Source: a phage
Reading direction: 5' to 3' (one strand)
Sequence record: PV805631.1
Length of the DNA: 64,000 nt
Of this stretch, positions 3,402 through 13,408 are shown one piece after another. The translations under genes were made by a program, and so were the position numbers. Every line of letters starts with the position of its first letter. The first letter of the stretch is position 1. The notes under the pieces are model-generated. The model made no database searches, had not been told where the DNA came from, and saw nothing but the letters and a program-made list of their open reading frames with translations.

Positions 3402-3878
3402 ATGAACTGGCATGAACTATTTGTTTATAGCAATGGTTCCCTTTACTGGAAAGTAAGTAGGGGCTGCGTAAAAGCAGGTGCCATTGCTGGTTGTTTGGAT
3501 AACAGCGGGTATTTGCGTGTTAAATGTAATAGAAAAAATCATTTAGTTCACCGCATAATTTATGAAATGGAAATTGGTCCAATTCCTGATGGTATGCAGG
3601 TAGACCATATTGACCACAATAGGCTAAATAATTACCCAAGTAATTTCCGTTTAGTAACAAACATGGTTAATAGTAAAAACCAAACCATGAGAGTAACAAA
3701 TACATCAGGTGTGACAGGAGTATACTGGCACACTCGGGATAAAATTTGGACTGCCCATATAAATGACAATGGTAAACAAATTTACTTAGGAAAATTTAAC
3801 AGTAAACAAGAAGCCATTTCAGCCAGAAAGGAAGCAGAAAAATTATTGGGCTACCATATAAATCATGGGGAACCCTAA
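3402..3878 (+). mobile_element. Free-standing HNH homing endonuclease (HNH plus AP2-like DNA-binding domain)
   Basis: 'DHIDHNRLNN...NFRLVT' HNH-type motif, then 'SGVTGVYWHTRDKIWTAHI...QIYLGKFNSKQEAISARKEA' AP2-like; sits between the ATPase and vWA genes. Confidence 0.75.
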
Positions 3879-5053
3879 TGAATAGTATACCTACGCATAC
3901 TCTCACTGATGAACGGTTAATGAGGGAGTACGATAGAATACAAGCGCAGGCATTTCTCGGACGTAGTGCAGCGTTTTTTGGTTCATTGCTGTGTAGTCTT
4001 AAGTTCTCATGGAAACGTGAGGGCTGTCCCACTGCATGTACCGACGGGATAGAACTCCATTTCAACCCAGACTTCTTTATCTGGATGTGTCCTGATGCAA
4101 GGGAAACAGTGCTAATGCACGAACTTTGGCATGTGGCATATCTGCATGGAATCCGTTGTGGAAGCCGTGATCCAGAAGTCTGGAACCAGGCATGTGACCA
4201 CTTCATTAACCTTCAGTTAGAGGAAGATGGTTACAAGTTCACTGGTATCGACAAAGGCATTTGCAAAGACCCTCAATATAAAGGATGGGTCGAAGAAGAC
4301 ATCTACGATGACCTGATGAAGAACCCTCAGAAAAGGCAGAAGCCGTCGGGGGGAGCTGGAGCAGGTCTTGCTGGCGACATGAAAGCTCCCTCTTCGGGGC
4401 AGTCCCAGGGTGCTGTTGTCAACAACGTAGTACGTGCAATACAAAGCCAGAAGATGGCTGGTGGAACGATGCCCGGTAAAGGTGCTGGTCGTATGGAAGA
4501 GGTTATTACCCAATTCCTTAAACCAGTGGTTCCGTGGCAGGAAGTCCTGATGAACTTCTTTACCGACATTGATGATACGCATTATACGTGGGCCAGACCC
4601 AACCGTCGTTTCACTGACGTCTATCTACCTTCTCTGGAAGATGATGAAGGACGTTTACGACACTTAGCCTATTTTGAGGATGTATCCGGTTCTATTAGTA
4701 GTGCTGACTCTCTGCGTTTTAACTCAGAGGTTGCCTACGTTAAGAGCCAGTTCAATCCTAAGAAGATGACCCTAATTACCTTCGACGATATTATCCAAGA
4801 AGAAATAGACATCACTGAAGAAGATACTTTTGAAGAGATTAAGATTACTGGACGAGGGGGTACAAACCTTGAACCAGTGCGTGAATGGATTATTAAGAAT
4901 AAGCCAACCGCTGCAATCATATTCTCTGATATGTATGTTCGCCCTATGGAAGATTTACCATTTGATATTCCTATCATCTGGTGTGTTCTGAATAATCCTA
5001 ATGCTACCGTACCTTTTGGGGAGGTAGTTCATATCCCTAAAGGAATGAAATAA
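3878..5053 (+). CDS. vWA-domain protein with N-terminal putative metallopeptidase-like region (partner of the AAA+ ATPase)
   Basis: 'VLMHELWHVAYLHG' (HExxH), C-terminal vWA-like 'ITGRGGTNLEPV...AAIIFSDMYV'. Confidence 0.65.
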   Translation: MNSIPTHTLTDERLMREYDRIQAQAFLGRSAAFFGSLLCSLKFSWKREGCPTACTDGIELHFNPDFFIWMCPDARETVLMHELWHVAYLHGIRCGSRDPEVWNQACDHFINLQLEEDGYKFTGIDKGICKDPQYKGWVEEDIYDDLMKNPQKRQKPSGGAGAGLAGDMKAPSSGQSQGAVVNNVVRAIQSQKMAGGTMPGKGAGRMEEVITQFLKPVVPWQEVLMNFFTDIDDTHYTWARPNRRFTDVYLPSLEDDEGRLRHLAYFEDVSGSISSADSLRFNSEVAYVKSQFNPKKMTLITFDDIIQEEIDITEEDTFEEIKITGRGGTNLEPVREWIIKNKPTAAIIFSDMYVRPMEDLPFDIPIIWCVLNNPNATVPFGEVVHIPKGMK

Positions 5054-5559
5054 TGATTGTTAATGGTAATTCTCTATACCGTTCATCTCAATTGCTGGAT
5101 GTCCCAGACCGTAAGGTATCCGAGCATGGTGTAAGCTATGGATTAGGTGAAGCTGGTTATGATATTCGTATCAAACAAGACATTACCTTCTATCGCTTAT
5201 TTGGGTTAATTCCAATGGTGAAAATCGTCGATGGAAAACAAGTATCACGCCATCTCGGTAAATTCGCATTAGCTTCAGCAATTGAGAAGTTCAACATGTC
5301 ACCCTCGTGTGTAGCTATCGTTCACGATAAGTCCACATGGGCAAGACGTGCATTATCTGTGTTCAATACCGTAATAGAACCAGGATGGAAAGGGTATCTT
5401 ACCCTTGAACTGGTCTATCACGGTCGTAAGAAACTGCATATCCCGGCTGGTGCTGGGATAGCTCAAGTATTATTTCATCTGGTTCAAGAGCCTGCTAATT
5501 ACAACGGCAAGTATCAGAATCAGGAGGACAAACCAGTAGCTGCAAGAAGCAGTAAATAA
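5053..5559 (+). CDS. dcd: dCTP deaminase-like protein
   Basis: 'IEPGWKGYLTLELVYHG...YNGKYQNQ' parallels E. coli Dcd 'IDPGWSGCIVLEF...YNRREDAKYRNQQG' as recalled. Confidence 0.65.
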   Translation: MIVNGNSLYRSSQLLDVPDRKVSEHGVSYGLGEAGYDIRIKQDITFYRLFGLIPMVKIVDGKQVSRHLGKFALASAIEKFNMSPSCVAIVHDKSTWARRALSVFNTVIEPGWKGYLTLELVYHGRKKLHIPAGAGIAQVLFHLVQEPANYNGKYQNQEDKPVAARSSK

Positions 5560-5568
5560 GGAAACAAC

Positions 5569-5769
5569 ATGTCTGTATTTCAAGTAACTCCTGTTGATAG
5601 TACCCAACGTAAAACTATTGTTGCAACTAATGTAGTAGATGTAGATGAAACCCCAGCTGGTGCTGTAATCCATCTGATTGATGGGCGAACTGTAACTGTA
5701 AAAGAAAGCTATCGTTCAGTACGTGGTTACGTCCGTAAAGCTTTAGCTGCTGTCTCTGATGCAGAGTAA
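5569..5769 (+). CDS. Hypothetical protein
   Basis: 66-aa ORF in operon context. Confidence 0.35.
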   Translation: MSVFQVTPVDSTQRKTIVATNVVDVDETPAGAVIHLIDGRTVTVKESYRSVRGYVRKALAAVSDAE

Positions 5770-5780
5770 GTAGCTGCCTA

Positions 5781-5808
5781 AATAGCCCAACTATGCTGGG
5801 CTATTTGT
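5781..5808 (+). terminator. Hairpin, possible weak terminator
   Basis: Stem AATAGCCCA / TGGGCTATT with a short T-tract. Confidence 0.3.
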
Positions 5809-6103
5809 GAAGAAACTAACTCAACCTCACATAGGAACCATCATGGAATCTTTAGCAGCAATCCTCGTTCTGTTATTTGCACTTGCTATATACCTTATCC
5901 CTACTATTATTGCTTTTGCACGAGGCCATGCCTCTAAGTGGGGCATTGGTATACTCAATATCGTATTAGGCTGGTCTTTAGTCTTCTGGGTAGTAGCACT
6001 GATTTGGTCACTGTCTAACAAAGGGCAGTCTCAGACTACAATCGTTAACGTTGGCAGTGGTAACCAGTACAACGTGTCTCAAACGAGCCAGTCTGATAAG
6101 TAA
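5807..6103 (+). CDS. Superinfection-immunity-like small membrane protein
   Basis: Two TM segments; 'PTIIAFARGH...ILNIVLGWSLVFWVVALIWSL' matches the Imm_superinfect-type motif as recalled. Confidence 0.55.
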   Translation: MKKLTQPHIGTIMESLAAILVLLFALAIYLIPTIIAFARGHASKWGIGILNIVLGWSLVFWVVALIWSLSNKGQSQTTIVNVGSGNQYNVSQTSQSDK

Positions 6104-6177
6104 CTAACCTAAGCATCATTGTATAGTGGTGCTTGTGGAAGTTGCTTCCAGCTCATTACTTATCCATCTCCTAATCC

Positions 6178-6206
6178 AAGCCCACCTAACCCGTGGGCTT
6201 TTTTTA
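6178..6206 (+). terminator. Intrinsic terminator
   Basis: Stem AAGCCCAC / GTGGGCTT followed by TTTTTTT. Confidence 0.75.
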
Positions 6207-6226
6207 ATTATAGGTAGTAAATACTA

Positions 6227-6670
6227 ATGCGTATCCCATTCCTAAGAAAAAGGGAACGGAATCCTGTTCTTTATAATAAAGGCATAGAGGATGAGTATGA
6301 ACTCAACCGTAAGGCCCGTTCCTACGCAGCAAAATTATTCATGGGGACTAGCAACCCTAATAGATTACTGGACTTTGTTTTCGAACAAGTCTTTATCATA
6401 TACAGCTTAGCTATGTCTGCTGGTTCACAAGAAGTAAGTGATAAGGCAAGATATGCTCTCTGTATGCTCCGGAAAGAGTATGAAGCCCTCCTGTATGAAG
6501 ACTTGTACTCCTTTAAGAAAGAAACCGCTGTAGCGTGTTCTGTGGCTCTTACTGAAGGTATAGCAGTATTACAAGAACTACCTCGTAGTGAGTTTAAGCT
6601 GGTATATGCCCAGGCCAGGAGAATTACAGAAAACCGAAGTGGTATTACCAACTATCTAAGGTCATTCTAA
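6227..6670 (+). CDS. Hypothetical protein
   Basis: 147-aa ORF; its stop overlaps the ThyX start. Confidence 0.45.
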   Translation: MRIPFLRKRERNPVLYNKGIEDEYELNRKARSYAAKLFMGTSNPNRLLDFVFEQVFIIYSLAMSAGSQEVSDKARYALCMLRKEYEALLYEDLYSFKKETAVACSVALTEGIAVLQELPRSEFKLVYAQARRITENRSGITNYLRSF

Positions 6671-7614
6671 TGATTAAGGCAACTGTCATTGCAGATTCCG
6701 TTCATCATGTAACGGGTACTCGTATTACTACCTTTGAATTGGTTTATCCTCGATTCATTCACAGTGAGTTTATGACCCACCGTGTATTCAACCGAAATGC
6801 TTCAAGTAGTCGTGCTATCCCTACTTCTAAGTTCATAGAACAGGTTCGTAATGAACCAGTGATGCCAAGTCACTGGGGCAAGAACCAGAAAGGTATGCAG
6901 GCATTTGAAGAATTGTCTGAAGACCAACGTAGTGATGCAACCTTTATCTGGGAACAGGCTGCATCCAGTGCTGCTACCTATGCAGAAATGCTTCGTCGTG
7001 GACAAGTACATAAGCAGATTGTTAACCGTATTCTGGAACCATTTACGCATATCCGTGTAGTGGTAACTTCAACTAGCTGGGCTAATTTCTATGGCTTACG
7101 TGACCATGAAGATGCTCAACCAGAGATTCGTGAACTGGCTCAAGCAATGCGTAAGGCTCATAATGAAAGTGTTCCATCTAAGCTGTCCCAAGGTGTGTGG
7201 CATCTGCCTTATATTCGCAAGATTGATTGTATTAACGCTTACGATCATTGCAAACATCAACGAGTTACTTGTGATAAACCAAGTGATGAAGAAGTTTTAG
7301 GCTTACTGCTTAAAGTCTCTGCTGCTCGCTGTGCACGTGCCTCCTATAACAACTTTGAAGGCAAGCCATCTACTATTAGTGATGACCTTGCCCTCTTTGC
7401 TAAGTTGGTAGAGAAACAACCAATTCATGCGTCACCTACTGAGCATCAAGCTACCCCGATGGACTTCAGTACCAAGTTTGTTAACAACCAGAACCCATTA
7501 ACCTGGGAACAAGGTGTTACCTCTATGGACCGTGAAGGTAAGCTGTACTCAGGCAACTTACTGGATTTCATCCAATTCCGTAAACTAATACCCGGAGAAA
7601 CAATTACAGAATGA
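6670..7614 (+). CDS. thyX: Flavin-dependent thymidylate synthase (ThyX-like)
   Basis: 'FMTHRVFNRNASSSRAIP' resembles the ThyX RHR-x7-S signature, with THR in place of RHR. Confidence 0.6.
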   Translation: MIKATVIADSVHHVTGTRITTFELVYPRFIHSEFMTHRVFNRNASSSRAIPTSKFIEQVRNEPVMPSHWGKNQKGMQAFEELSEDQRSDATFIWEQAASSAATYAEMLRRGQVHKQIVNRILEPFTHIRVVVTSTSWANFYGLRDHEDAQPEIRELAQAMRKAHNESVPSKLSQGVWHLPYIRKIDCINAYDHCKHQRVTCDKPSDEEVLGLLLKVSAARCARASYNNFEGKPSTISDDLALFAKLVEKQPIHASPTEHQATPMDFSTKFVNNQNPLTWEQGVTSMDREGKLYSGNLLDFIQFRKLIPGETITE

Positions 7615-7847
7615 AACGTTTAGCTATCCAAGCTCTATTTATAAGTATCATCCTGGTTCTGGAATTTGTATTTGCACTACATGGTGCACAGAGCCTGGAA
7701 GAGATGTTCTTCGTAGTAGCCCGTTTCTCTGCGTGTGTTCTTGGCTTGTGGTGTGTGTATTACTATGCACGAGATTACGCAGCCATTAAGGAACATGATG
7801 ATGCTAAGGAACGTCTACGACAATTCGTAGAAGAGAATCGTAAGTAA
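7611..7847 (+). CDS. Small membrane protein (hypothetical)
   Basis: Two hydrophobic segments; ATGA overlap with thyX. Confidence 0.4.
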   Translation: MKRLAIQALFISIILVLEFVFALHGAQSLEEMFFVVARFSACVLGLWCVYYYARDYAAIKEHDDAKERLRQFVEENRK

Positions 7848-8793: not shown

Positions 8794-11358
8794 ATGTTAG
8801 TCGCAGATACCAATCAATCAGCCACTTCAGCGACACTGGGTGGCAAAGAAGCAATCGCTTTTGCCATCTCAGATGACCCGGCATTCTTTCATGTATTAAG
8901 TACCTCCTTGTATAACAACCCTACTCTGGCAGTAGTCCGTGAGACTATCTGTAACAGTTGGGATGCTCATATTGAAGCAGGTAAGACTGATACTCCTATC
9001 CGTATTACTATTGATACAGACAATTTTATTACCTTCCGTGACTTCGGTAATGGGATACCAGATGAACTCATTGGTTCCATTTATGGTGTCTACGGTGCAT
9101 CTACCAAGAAGTCCAACAGTAGTGTTACTGGTGGCTTTGGTTTGGGATGTAAATCCCCATTCGCTTATACAGATAGCTTCCAGGTTACTTCATGGAACCA
9201 GGGAAAGATGTCAGTATATAACGTAGCTAAGGCTGCGATTGAGAATGATGGTAAACCGGGTATTGTTCCTATTGTTACTGGTATTCCTACTGAGGAATCT
9301 GGTCTGGAAGTTAAATTCCAGCTAGGTAAACATGATGTGAATACCTTTGTACATTACATCACGTCAATTGTATTTAACGGTGAGATTAAGGCTGAGCTTA
9401 GTATTCCCAAACTTGTTCGTGAAGAAACAGGTAATAGTATTCAGCAGGGTAACTATACTCTACTGAATACGCTAGGTATGTCATTTGAACCAGGTTCATA
9501 TGATATGTCTGATAAATGGTATCAAGGCTATATGGGTAACAGCACCATCTTTGTTCGCTACGGTAACGTAATGTACCCAATAGTATCTAGCCCGGCTAGT
9601 GAAGAGGCTGTAGGTCTTATTCTCAACTTCATGAATATCATTGGAGCTGATAATTTAGTAGTTCAGGCTGCACCAGATACCTTAGCTATTGCCCCTAGTC
9701 GTGAAACGCTGTCTAACCAGAAGTTAACCGACGATGGTATTACTGCTCTATGCGTAGATTTAGTAGACCGTATGGAGAAAGAGATTAAGGCTAAGATTCC
9801 TGAAGCTATTAAGCAGGTTGAAGAATATGCCTCCCAATCTTCTACTCGTGACTGGGAATATCCTGCTTTCTTAAGTGCTGTTACAGACAGAACTGTTCAA
9901 CGCTATATGTCCTCTAGTTTGTGGGCTAAGCAGCGTAAACATCATGTTAAGCACTGGCGTAATCTATCCAATAAGGCATTACTAGCTCGCCCTGAATATG
10001 CAGGGCTTAAAAAACTGTATAGTAAGGCTATGCGTGCTCTTAAGTGTACGCGTGAAGATAAAACATACTATCAATTCCAGGATTTAGTATATCGGCATCT
10101 GCACTTACCTCAGCTTGCTGCTTTAAAAGCTACAGGTATTAAGTGGTCTGGTTACATAATGAACCAGGGTAGCAGTGTTGGCCTGGTAACAGGTAAACTT
10201 ACTGACTACTTTAAGATGGGCTATAACAGCCATTTGGGTATCGGTATATTCACTACCAAGAACGTTGTAGTTACAAGACGTTTATCTGACTGTGCAGACT
10301 CTTTTTCATACTTCCCTGATTACACCCAAGGTGATCTGAAGCGTACAGCTTTTGTTCACGTCGTTGGTCCTAAGAAAGGAGAAGCAGAAAAAGCTGTAGC
10401 TAAGTTCTCTGCTATGGGTTATCGGGTAATTGACCTTACTCAATACAATGAGTGGGACAAGCCAACTAACTTCCGCAGGGAACAGGCTAAGATAGCTGCT
10501 GAGAAGCGTGCTAAGACAATAGCTGCCAATAAAACCAAAGCAGGGGGTAAAACTAATGCACTGGTTTCATTGAATGCAGTACTTGGTACTACCCCTGTAC
10601 GAGATAAAAGCGGTGATTTGGTATCTAAACCATACATTGACAAGGATTTTGCTGACCCAAGATTCCATGAGGAACCTAGATTCGTTGAGGTGGATCTGCC
10701 TAAGTACTACGTACCAGCCAGTCAGGTTGTTTCTGGTAGACCAGCAACTGCCAAGATTGGAACCATGTGGAAATGGTATGAATTATCCGATGAGATGAAA
10801 GCAGAAACTGTTGTCTGTCGTAATCAAATCGAAGTTAACAAAGCCAAACGTCGTGGTGCTATTCACATTGACGATATTCGTCTTAATGAATTGATGTCTG
10901 TTATTACCAGCAAGGGATTCAAGAAGTACGCCACTGAACAACGTAACGGTGTTCTTGAGTATCTTGATTTAAATGACAAAGAATACTGTGAAATCCTCGA
11001 CATTCTTGGACTAACATTCAAACCATTACAGAGTCTGGTTCTTAAACCAGAGTACGAATGGGCATGTGACTTCCTAAGAAATCATTCAAGTAACAAAGAT
11101 AAACTGGTTGAGATGGGCCTCATTAAGTCAGTAGATGACTTGGAACCATATGTAAGGATGGTTAATCCTCGTATGCATAAGTATTTCAAAGTACTTAACG
11201 AGTACAAAGGGTTATTTAGATATAGCTGGAATGATAATGACATCCTGCAAAGCCTGGATTTGAGTAGATTAATCAAACATCTCAAGAAAAATCCAGAGGA
11301 TATTCCTGGGTTTAAGCCCCTCTACCGTAATCGTTTAAATAAACTGAAAGGTAAATAA
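8794..11358 (+). CDS. rIIA: rIIA-like protein with N-terminal GHKL-type ATPase fold
   Basis: 854 aa; 'NSWDAHIEAG...IRITID...FRDFGNGIP' is Bergerat-fold-like; followed directly by an rIIB-sized gene. Confidence 0.65.
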   Translation: MLVADTNQSATSATLGGKEAIAFAISDDPAFFHVLSTSLYNNPTLAVVRETICNSWDAHIEAGKTDTPIRITIDTDNFITFRDFGNGIPDELIGSIYGVYGASTKKSNSSVTGGFGLGCKSPFAYTDSFQVTSWNQGKMSVYNVAKAAIENDGKPGIVPIVTGIPTEESGLEVKFQLGKHDVNTFVHYITSIVFNGEIKAELSIPKLVREETGNSIQQGNYTLLNTLGMSFEPGSYDMSDKWYQGYMGNSTIFVRYGNVMYPIVSSPASEEAVGLILNFMNIIGADNLVVQAAPDTLAIAPSRETLSNQKLTDDGITALCVDLVDRMEKEIKAKIPEAIKQVEEYASQSSTRDWEYPAFLSAVTDRTVQRYMSSSLWAKQRKHHVKHWRNLSNKALLARPEYAGLKKLYSKAMRALKCTREDKTYYQFQDLVYRHLHLPQLAALKATGIKWSGYIMNQGSSVGLVTGKLTDYFKMGYNSHLGIGIFTTKNVVVTRRLSDCADSFSYFPDYTQGDLKRTAFVHVVGPKKGEAEKAVAKFSAMGYRVIDLTQYNEWDKPTNFRREQAKIAAEKRAKTIAANKTKAGGKTNALVSLNAVLGTTPVRDKSGDLVSKPYIDKDFADPRFHEEPRFVEVDLPKYYVPASQVVSGRPATAKIGTMWKWYELSDEMKAETVVCRNQIEVNKAKRRGAIHIDDIRLNELMSVITSKGFKKYATEQRNGVLEYLDLNDKEYCEILDILGLTFKPLQSLVLKPEYEWACDFLRNHSSNKDKLVEMGLIKSVDDLEPYVRMVNPRMHKYFKVLNEYKGLFRYSWNDNDILQSLDLSRLIKHLKKNPEDIPGFKPLYRNRLNKLKGK

Positions 11359-11362
11359 TCTG

Positions 11363-13408
11363 ATGAAAATCGAATTGATTTCTATCATCGCACTGGCAGT
11401 TGACAGTCGAAACCTCACACTGTGGAAGCCAGATGGCTCCACGGTTGTATATCCTCAGAGCGACCCACGGGTTGCTCGTATTGTATCTGAAGCACAGACC
11501 AAAGGTCTTGGTACTACCCAGGACCAAATAGAAGTAAACATTGCACCAGAAGTAGAGCTACGTACTGAATATCTGGAAGCAGAGAAGAACACCAACGGAT
11601 TCGTTCGCTTCTTTAAGGTAGCTAAAGCTAAACTCAAAGAGTTCTTCGAAGATGGTACAGGTGTTTCACCAGCCCGTACCGTTTCAGATATTAAGCTGGG
11701 TAATCCTACTAAGACGCTGGTATCTAAAGCTATGGATACCTTCCTGGCTGTTCAGGCTAATGAACCGGAGGTAACAGTAGCAGATGGTTACTACGACAAA
11801 CGTGACAATCTGATGTGGGTTACTGGCTGGGATAAAGACCATAACCATCTTGCACTGGTTCGTTTTATTAACGACGTACTTTGTTGGAGTCATAAACATA
11901 CTGATCTTACTCTTAGACAAGAATGGCCTATTGCAATTCGTGCAGTATCTGACGATGAAATGGGGGAGTTTGCTAAACAAGCTCAGAACATCAAAGGTGT
12001 ACACGTTGTATTTACCAATCGTGGGGAAACACCACTGCCTTACGTGGAAGTAGCTAAAACTACGAACCAGGATAAGCTGGCTGCTGCTTCTGAGAAACTG
12101 GCTGCATTGGGTGCTATCAGCACCGATGATGCTAACTTCCACACTGATGTGAAGGAAGATGAAGTGGTTGTTGCTGTTACCAACAATGGGGTTATCCCTG
12201 GGGTTGAGAACCTGCAACGTCACCTGCGTCAATCTGCCAAACTGAAAGACTACAAGGGCTTTACTAAGTTCCTTGAGCGTCTGGCTCCGGTTATTAAAGA
12301 CCGCCTGCACTCAGTGGAAGACCTGATGAAGTTCATGGAAACTGCTGAACTGCCTATCGCTGATGATGGCTCTATCCTGTTTCTGAAACGCCTTGAGTTC
12401 AGAGGTGAAGAAAATGGTAAACGTGTATTCGTTGACTGTCACTCGGGTAACATCCGTCAGTGGGTAGGCTGTAAAGTACAGGTACGGGAAGACCTGGTAG
12501 ACCCTGACCGTCGTCAGGACTGCTCTAATGGTCTGCACGTAGCATCCATGAGTTACATTCGTACCTTCGGTGGTAACGTAACTATCCTTGGTAAAGTAGC
12601 ACCAGAAGATGTATTTGCTGTTCCTGAGTACAACACTAATAAGATGCGTGTAGCTGCGTATCACATTATTGCTGAACTACCGGAAGAGGAACGTTGCAAC
12701 GTTAACAATGGCATTTATCTGTCTAAAACAGAAGTGGGTAAGAAACTGCTTAATGATGCCATCGTTGGGAACCATAGTTCACCTACCACACTCGTTATGG
12801 TTGGTGGGCATCATGGCACTAACCTCAAATACACCAATCTCTCGTCTGGTTCTGTAGAACAGTTCCGTACAGTTGCTAATAAAGAGGCACTGAATATGGA
12901 AGAGTCACTGAATGAAGCTGTAGCTGCTGAACCAGTGAAGGCTACTGACCTTAAACCTATTGTTAATAAGGCTCCTACCGTGAAAGAACAAATCCAGGAA
13001 CTGATTAAAGAGTTCCTTAACGCAACTACTCCGGAAGATAAATTAGCTGCTGCTGATTTGCTTGTGGAAATGCGAGGTAAGGCTCGTAAGCCATGGGCTG
13101 CTTTAGGTGTTGGTTCCGATGTGGTATCTAAGATTGCTGATGTGCGTAGTACTCGCATTCCTGCACCGAAAGCTGTACCAGTGAAGCAAGCTAAGGTTCA
13201 TCGCTCGGCTACTGCTACTAAGGTAGCACCGTCTGGTAAACACGCTGATAACCTGCGTAGCATCCTGAACGATACGTCCTACTCTGACTATCAGAAAGGT
13301 CATGCTCTACAAGACTATAAGCGTCATGCCAAGAAGTCATTCACTGCAATGGGTCTGACTGAAGAAGAAGCTAAGTTGGCTACCAAGCTGGCCAAGGCCG
13401 TTAAGTAA
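11363..13408 (+). CDS. rIIB: rIIB-like protein
   Basis: 681-aa ORF directly downstream of rIIA-like gene; call by synteny and size only. Confidence 0.5.
   Translation: MKIELISIIALAVDSRNLTLWKPDGSTVVYPQSDPRVARIVSEAQTKGLGTTQDQIEVNIAPEVELRTEYLEAEKNTNGFVRFFKVAKAKLKEFFEDGTGVSPARTVSDIKLGNPTKTLVSKAMDTFLAVQANEPEVTVADGYYDKRDNLMWVTGWDKDHNHLALVRFINDVLCWSHKHTDLTLRQEWPIAIRAVSDDEMGEFAKQAQNIKGVHVVFTNRGETPLPYVEVAKTTNQDKLAAASEKLAALGAISTDDANFHTDVKEDEVVVAVTNNGVIPGVENLQRHLRQSAKLKDYKGFTKFLERLAPVIKDRLHSVEDLMKFMETAELPIADDGSILFLKRLEFRGEENGKRVFVDCHSGNIRQWVGCKVQVREDLVDPDRRQDCSNGLHVASMSYIRTFGGNVTILGKVAPEDVFAVPEYNTNKMRVAAYHIIAELPEEERCNVNNGIYLSKTEVGKKLLNDAIVGNHSSPTTLVMVGGHHGTNLKYTNLSSGSVEQFRTVANKEALNMEESLNEAVAAEPVKATDLKPIVNKAPTVKEQIQELIKEFLNATTPEDKLAAADLLVEMRGKARKPWAALGVGSDVVSKIADVRSTRIPAPKAVPVKQAKVHRSATATKVAPSGKHADNLRSILNDTSYSDYQKGHALQDYKRHAKKSFTAMGLTEEEAKLATKLAKAVK

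Follow-up and report, generated by a model that had tools for sequence, protein, structure and literature searches.

The window analysed here, a stretch of 64 kb out of a 72.9-kb genome, belongs to Escherichia phage vB_EcoP_G7C (G7C; HQ259105 / NC_015933), which in a megablast search of a phage collection gave a 100% identical, full-length match to window positions 5000-7000. Window coordinates equal G7C record coordinates minus 7515. G7C is an N4-like podovirus of the genus Gamaleyavirus (Schitoviridae, Enquatrovirinae). A virulent lifestyle is general among N4-like phages, and the match to this virulent phage bears out the original prediction, made from the letters alone, that the locus lies in a lytic-type genome.

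The gene examined, gp27.1 (imm), is found at approximately 13.36 kb in the G7C record, with gp26 (dCTP deaminase) and gp27 upstream and gp29 and gp30 (ThyX) downstream. It is encoded on the plus strand, as are the dCTP deaminase, thyX, rIIA/B and replication genes, and all the features described below for the locus lie on that strand. The GenBank record of G7C describes its product as [quoted passage not shown], and RefSeq as "immunity to superinfection". The identification of gp27.1 as an Imm-type gene is already known, the G7C record and dozens of related genomes carrying the same label; our literature search found no published experiments on gp27.1 or on any Gamaleyavirus Imm homologue.

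Gene model and protein architecture

An open reading frame of 98 amino acids with a GTG start is present at 5807-6103, and the two motifs originally quoted from it, PTIIAFARGH and LGWSLVFWVVALIWSL, are found in its translation exactly as given. Nevertheless, the true start is almost certainly not this GTG but the ATG at 5843, from which a protein of 86 amino acids is read up to a TAA stop (5843-6103). This shorter model, preferred on the evidence of the family match, GenBank and the relatives, follows from three observations: the ATG and the Shine-Dalgarno sequence AGGA located 6 nt before it (5833-5836) are unchanged in all seven related Gamaleyavirus loci compared; the GenBank gene model starts at the ATG; and the alignment with T4 Imm begins at Met1 of both proteins (METL.. 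vs MESL..). The GTG codon at 5807 was rejected as a start, being GAG in one relative (L012), lacking a ribosome-binding site, and contributing its first G as the last paired base of an upstream hairpin (5779-5807).

The hydropathy profile of the 86-residue form (Kyte-Doolittle, 19-residue windows) contains two hydrophobic segments, at residues ~1-29 and 33-59, and an AlphaFold2 model of moderate confidence (mean pLDDT 65.8), for which a 14-sequence alignment was the input, places helices at residues 2-27 and 32-60, followed by a disordered tail. Both analyses agree with the two transmembrane (TM) helices first proposed for this protein. As modelled, gp27.1 would form a helical hairpin, in which a conserved basic loop of a few residues, R27-G-H-A-S-K32 (5921-5938), connects TM helix 1 (residues ~3-26; 5849-5920) to TM helix 2 (residues ~33-58; 5939-6016), the latter supported by the Pfam match as well as by hydropathy and AlphaFold2. 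A polar, variable C-terminal tail rich in Q/S/T/N (residues 59-86; 6017-6100), delimited by the alignment and by the predicted disorder, would complete the protein. The Pfam Imm_superinfect domain itself covers residues 16-57 (nt 5888-6013).

Across the 14 aligned relatives, Y17, P20, R27-G-H and W55-x-L-S-N-K-G are kept; within the loop, R27, G28, H29 and S31 never vary, and A30 and K32 hardly do. The tail starts with an invariant SNKG (residues 58-61) and is variable from there on, and among gp27.1 homologues it occurs in two length and sequence variants within the genus. By the positive-inside rule the loop is predicted to be cytoplasmic and both termini periplasmic, an orientation in which the variable C-terminal tail could meet an incoming injection apparatus. 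The search for relatives in the PDB yielded none that was meaningful, the sole match being a designed helical-repeat protein over 24 residues.

Family membership, distribution and selection

A resemblance to the Imm_superinfect family had been suggested at the outset, and a Pfam HMM search upholds it: gp27.1 matches PF14373 with 60.7 bits (E 1.2e-16) over the full length of the model (positions 1-42 of 42), against a curated gathering score of 27.9 bits. No other Pfam family passes its curated cutoff for this protein. Furthermore, gp27.1 matches PHROG 1039, "immunity to superinfection", with an E value of 1.9e-33, a group placed by PHROGs in the category "moron, auxiliary metabolic gene and host takeover"; a search of NCBIfam returned no match, and neither did a search with PADLOC. 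T4 Imm (P08986), which is listed as a member of PF14373 (PMC6024767), scores 58.2 bits against the same model (imm from NC_000866) and aligns with gp27.1 by BLASTP at 33% identity over 69 aa (E 1e-10). When searched against the window by tblastn, it matches at one place only, 5843-6031 (E 3.7e-7). At the level of sequence, these results demonstrate that gp27.1 belongs to the T4 Imm / PF14373 family.

The likeness to T4 Imm (imm, NP_049660 / P08986), the founding member of PF14373, extends over size (83 aa as against 86 aa for gp27.1), two TM helices with a short basic loop, R-G-x-x-S, between them, and the shared pattern Y-x-x-P-x-x-I-A-x-x-R-G ... W ... I-W-S. Both imm genes are carried by virulent coliphages and lie among pre-replicative genes of nucleotide metabolism and replication, T4 imm adjoining gene 42 and gene 43 and G7C imm lying between the dCTP deaminase gene and thyX. 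The two proteins differ in their tails, Q/S/T/N-rich in gp27.1 and charged in T4 Imm, and in their carriers, G7C being an N4-like podovirus whose injected cargo includes a giant virion RNA polymerase, whereas T4 is a contractile-tail myovirus. No homologue of T4 Spackle (gp61.3), an inhibitor of the gp5 tail lysozyme, was found in the 64-kb window, where no tblastn match was better than E 4.4, and this absence fits a podovirus devoid of a gp5-type tail lysozyme.

Homologues of imm were identified in the phage collection in ~55 G7C-like records of 69-76 kb, a count that includes GenBank/RefSeq duplicates, most of them from Escherichia and Shigella phages; identity ranged from 75 to 100% and query coverage from 74 to 100%, and the majority are annotated as immunity proteins. 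Many metagenome contigs of ~72 kb also encode a homologue. In Klebsiella phage vB_Kpl_K57alpha1.2 (OY979416.1, 50584-50805) the imm homologue is labelled "virion RNA polymerase", probably an annotation artefact. Over the core of the protein (residues 1-62), dN/dS ranged from 0.02 to 0.23 in 20 of 21 pairs, demonstrating purifying selection.

Outside Gamaleyavirus, the nearest relatives of gp27.1 are not those of T-even phages. The Imm of Escherichia phage Mangalitsa, an unrelated virulent myovirus (Chaseviridae), is 64% identical over 80 aa, closer than T4 Imm, and that of Acinetobacter Obolenskvirus-type 44-kb myoviruses reaches 62-71% over the core; the Imm of Klebsiella and Citrobacter T4-like phages is 49% identical. 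All of these homologues are annotated as superinfection immunity, and they belong to different virus families with different genome backbones. The presence of one Imm subtype on unrelated backbones implies that virulent phages have exchanged the cassette horizontally. In Mangalitsa, imm (L027:2501-2755) lies among small early-type genes, ~2 kb from a thyX gene.

The extent of the family depends on the sensitivity of the search. A word-indexed protein search recovered relatives of at least 61% identity only, and a scan of IMG/VR eight loci, all but one of them close relatives; an exhaustive profile search reached 13,095 cluster representatives at E<=1e-3, of which 1,206 also pass E<=1e-10, and family members much longer than 86 aa are numerous among them. 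The PF14373 domain is also found in bacterial genomes, including those of Sphingomonadales, Acinetobacter and Chryseobacterium. These chromosomal proteins share with gp27.1 the two-TM domain, with comparable HMM scores, and differ from it in that they are encoded by the host, frequently carry additional domains (SHOCT) and are situated in housekeeping neighbourhoods. One such protein, of 137 aa, is encoded on the chromosome of Chryseobacterium hagamense (L023:3863-4276) and has a SHOCT domain at its C terminus in addition to Imm_superinfect (63.4 bits); its neighbours are genes for a peptidase M3, a YchJ-like protein and an FKBP, with no obvious prophage. In Campylobacter jejuni, the host-encoded PF14373 protein Cj0423 belongs to the operon that phage infection induces most strongly (PMC6024767). 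In a family this large, with chromosomal members, membership alone is no proof of exclusion, and the PF14373 domain may be a general membrane module.

Flanking structures and history of the locus

Between the gp27 stop codon and imm lies the hairpin already mentioned, at 5779-5807, formed by UAAAUAGCCCA and UGGGCUAUUUG around a 7-nt loop and annotated in GenBank as a stem_loop (record 13300-13316). It comprises 11 pairs and has a folding energy of -14.2 kcal/mol (z -4.1), a stability that none of 200 shuffled sequences equalled. In seven relatives the core stem TAGCCCA/TGGGCTA is invariant and six of the seven loop positions vary. The upstream hairpin of the original prediction is therefore real; it is devoid of a proper U-tract, and the terminator scan made no call there.

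Downstream of the gene, three elements follow one another. Right after the imm stop codon there is a hairpin of -13.9 kcal/mol (6110-6135), which by alignment with N4 is homologous in position to the first hairpin between gp27 and gp28 of that phage. Directly 3' of it is a small hairpin of 5 bp, GGAAG-uug-CUUCC (6136-6150). The third element is an intrinsic terminator at 6178-6207, AAGCCCAC-7nt-GUGGGCUU followed by U7, recovered by the terminator scan, by folding and by the N4 alignment; its stem of 8 bp (6178-6200) is followed by T7, in agreement with the terminator initially placed downstream of the gene. The terminator is common to N4 (GCCCAC..GTGGGC TTTTTTAATTA, with T6/7-AATTA after the stem), and the same element is annotated as a terminator in PhAPEC7. 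The pairing of the post-stop hairpin (6110-6135) is preserved by multiple compensatory changes in one relative (L011), and the N4 hairpin at the homologous site (L004:4040-4075) has a different sequence; both observations suggest that the structure itself, separate from the terminator 40 nt further on, is under selection, with a processing or stability site and a phage RNAPII signal as candidate roles.

These elements bear on how imm is expressed. The hairpins on both sides of the gene agree with its earlier description as an independently expressed unit; on the other hand, a scan for sigma-70-like promoters upstream of imm found none, and the upstream hairpin has no proper U-tract. Independent expression is consequently plausible, and read-through from gp26/gp27 into imm is equally possible, because the upstream hairpin lacks such a tract. 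The corresponding region of N4 is transcribed by the phage RNAPII ("middle" class). By synteny with N4, imm would fall in the same "middle"-class region. No known RNA families were detected around imm, where only sub-threshold terminator-like matches were obtained.

Comparison with N4 clarifies the history of the locus. N4 and G7C are syntenic for gp24, gp25, the dCTP deaminase gene gp26, gp27, gp29 and the thyX gene gp30. N4 has no Imm homologue, its slot being filled by gp28, which encodes an unrelated soluble protein of 80 aa without Pfam match. The intergenic region after imm in G7C is homologous to the N4 gp27-gp28 intergenic region (global alignment, z 8.8 relative to shuffles), and in PhAPEC7 the gene order is a gp27-like gene, imm, the terminator, a gp28 homologue and gp29. 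The absence of imm from N4, the N4-homologous region that follows it and the order in PhAPEC7 together indicate that imm, in comparison with N4, is an insertion, an accessory cassette that entered the backbone after gp27 and directly upstream of the ancestral gp27-gp28 hairpin and terminator. G7C itself has no gp28 homologue (window 6104-6226), while PhAPEC7 (L026:1444-1941) and other Gamaleyaviruses retain gp28; G7C has thus also lost gp28, and its being missing here and kept in relatives marks the slot as a hotspot of gene gain and loss.

A direct repeat flanking imm, of the form stop codon + hairpin + TTGTG(G)AAG, was considered and rejected: its strict local alignment scored 17, the mean of shuffled sequences being 12.5, and 22 of 500 shuffles scored at least as well. 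Under a lenient global alignment, the intergenic region before imm weakly resembles the terminator half of the region after it (z 5.7).

Several further features of the window were recorded. Relative to N4, several genes for HNH homing endonucleases have been inserted in the genome as gp2.1, gp15.1, gp24.1 (window 3402-3878), gp41.1 and gp47.1, and in related phages an HNH gene occurs near the imm/gp29 region. Directly 3' of thyX, gp30.1 (78 aa; window 7611-7847; PHROG 12633) apparently has two hydrophobic segments and is another small putative membrane protein. The rIIA-like and rIIB-like genes (gp33 and gp34; window 8794-13408) begin ~2.7 kb downstream of imm, so that G7C-like phages unite two gene sets familiar mainly from the membrane and exclusion biology of T4. 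Finally, window 26780-28415, between gp47.2 on the plus strand and the 3' end of the virion RNA polymerase gene on the minus strand, constitutes a stretch of ~1.6 kb without ORFs of more than ~60 aa, unusually long for non-coding DNA in a phage and situated where transcription directions converge; ARAGORN found no tRNA in it and no Rfam family scored above threshold, and its GenBank annotation consists of rho-independent terminators only.

Function of gp27.1

T4 Imm blocks the transfer of T-even DNA into the cytoplasm, and together with the separate periplasmic Spackle system it keeps superinfecting DNA out of the cytoplasm and so exposes that DNA to degradation (PMC6024767; PMC10002423; PMC7677548). 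By analogy, the most likely function of gp27.1, to which we assign a probability of roughly 0.6, would be a block of T4-Imm type against the entry of secondary-phage genomes at the inner membrane. The protein would be made before or during replication and insert into the host inner membrane, where, in the manner reported for T4 Imm, it would keep secondary-phage genomes from crossing; the DNA of the secondary phage would be stranded in the periplasm and degraded, and the infected cell would thereby be reserved for the first phage. To our knowledge, the functional annotation of PF14373 derives from T4 Imm alone, to which gp27.1 is 33% identical. T4 Imm acts on injection by T-even myoviruses, whereas an N4-like podovirus injects its DNA and a virion RNA polymerase of 3,759 aa by a different route, which counts against an entry block of the same kind in G7C, as do the size of the family, the absence of a Spackle partner from the window and the negative NCBIfam and PADLOC searches.

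Among the alternatives, the one that retains most weight, although we regard it as considerably less probable, is that gp27.1 guards the inner membrane of the infected cell against damage by secondary adsorption ("secondary traumatisation"), or modulates the timing of lysis. The action of T4 Imm has been reviewed by Abedon as poorly understood and as possibly preventing membrane damage by secondary adsorption, and T4 imm mutants are reported there to be partially defective in lysis inhibition (PMC6832632). The rIIA/rIIB-like genes of G7C are relevant to such a role, and the broad bacterial spread of PF14373 fits a generic membrane function. However, G7C has been reported to lack lysis inhibition (PMC12642591), which argues against a role in lysis timing, and against membrane protection it is the DNA-entry block that is cited as the function of T4 Imm (PMC6024767; PMC10002423).

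It is also conceivable, though improbable, that gp27.1 resembles T4 Imm in fold only and is a membrane protein of host takeover or counter-defence, directed for example against a membrane-acting abortive-infection effector or a host Imm-like protein. Host-encoded PF14373 proteins do exist, among them C. jejuni Cj0423 in its phage-induced operon (PMC6024767), and the PHROGs category of PHROG 1039 is a host takeover grouping; nonetheless, PADLOC gave no match for gp27.1, and its similarity to T4 Imm spans the full length of the protein, beyond a shared fold.

Far less credit can be given to gp27.1 being a lysis protein, that is a class II-type holin or antiholin. Like holins, it is small and has two TM helices, and T4 Imm "reportedly molecularly resembles a holin" (PMC6832632). 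The lysis cassette of G7C (spanins gp60/60', muramidase gp61, gp62 and gp63) is nevertheless located at 59.4-61.1 kb of the record, on the opposite strand and in the late region, ~46 kb from imm, and we reject the holin reading on location; in addition, the lysis proteins of N4 are defined and include no Imm homologue (PMC12642591), and no holin family is found among the Pfam matches of gp27.1. A functionless imm, whether a chance ORF or a remnant in decay, for which its small size alone would speak, is refuted by a dN/dS far below 1, the invariant start and ribosome-binding site, the ~55 phage records, the metagenome contigs and the strong HMM match.

Returning to the block of genome entry as the preferred reading, the distribution of the subtype invites a more specific and clearly more speculative proposal. 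Since virulent phages of at least four families (Schitoviridae, Chaseviridae, T4-like Straboviridae and Acinetobacter Obolenskvirus-type myoviruses) exchange this Imm subtype, the Imm of G7C-like phages might act on a step of inner-membrane translocation common to different injection machines, and exclusion might then operate across families. We consider this proposal doubtful, its probability being well below that of the entry block itself. If it were true, competitors such as T-even phages would be excluded, rather than G7C-like phages alone, and the variable C-terminal tail, predicted to be periplasmic and present as two variants in the genus, would become a candidate determinant of specificity.

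An exclusion function of gp27.1 would matter in several respects. It would have to be taken into account in the design of phage cocktails: pathogenic E. coli is among the targets of G7C-like phages, whose Imm could antagonise co-administered phages. The Imm-type block of genome translocation could also be studied in a second and very different injection system, that of a podovirus carrying a virion RNA polymerase. The superinfection exclusion system of N4 has been described as uncharacterised (PMC12642591); the Imm homologue of G7C-like phages might be the exclusion device of this N4-like branch.
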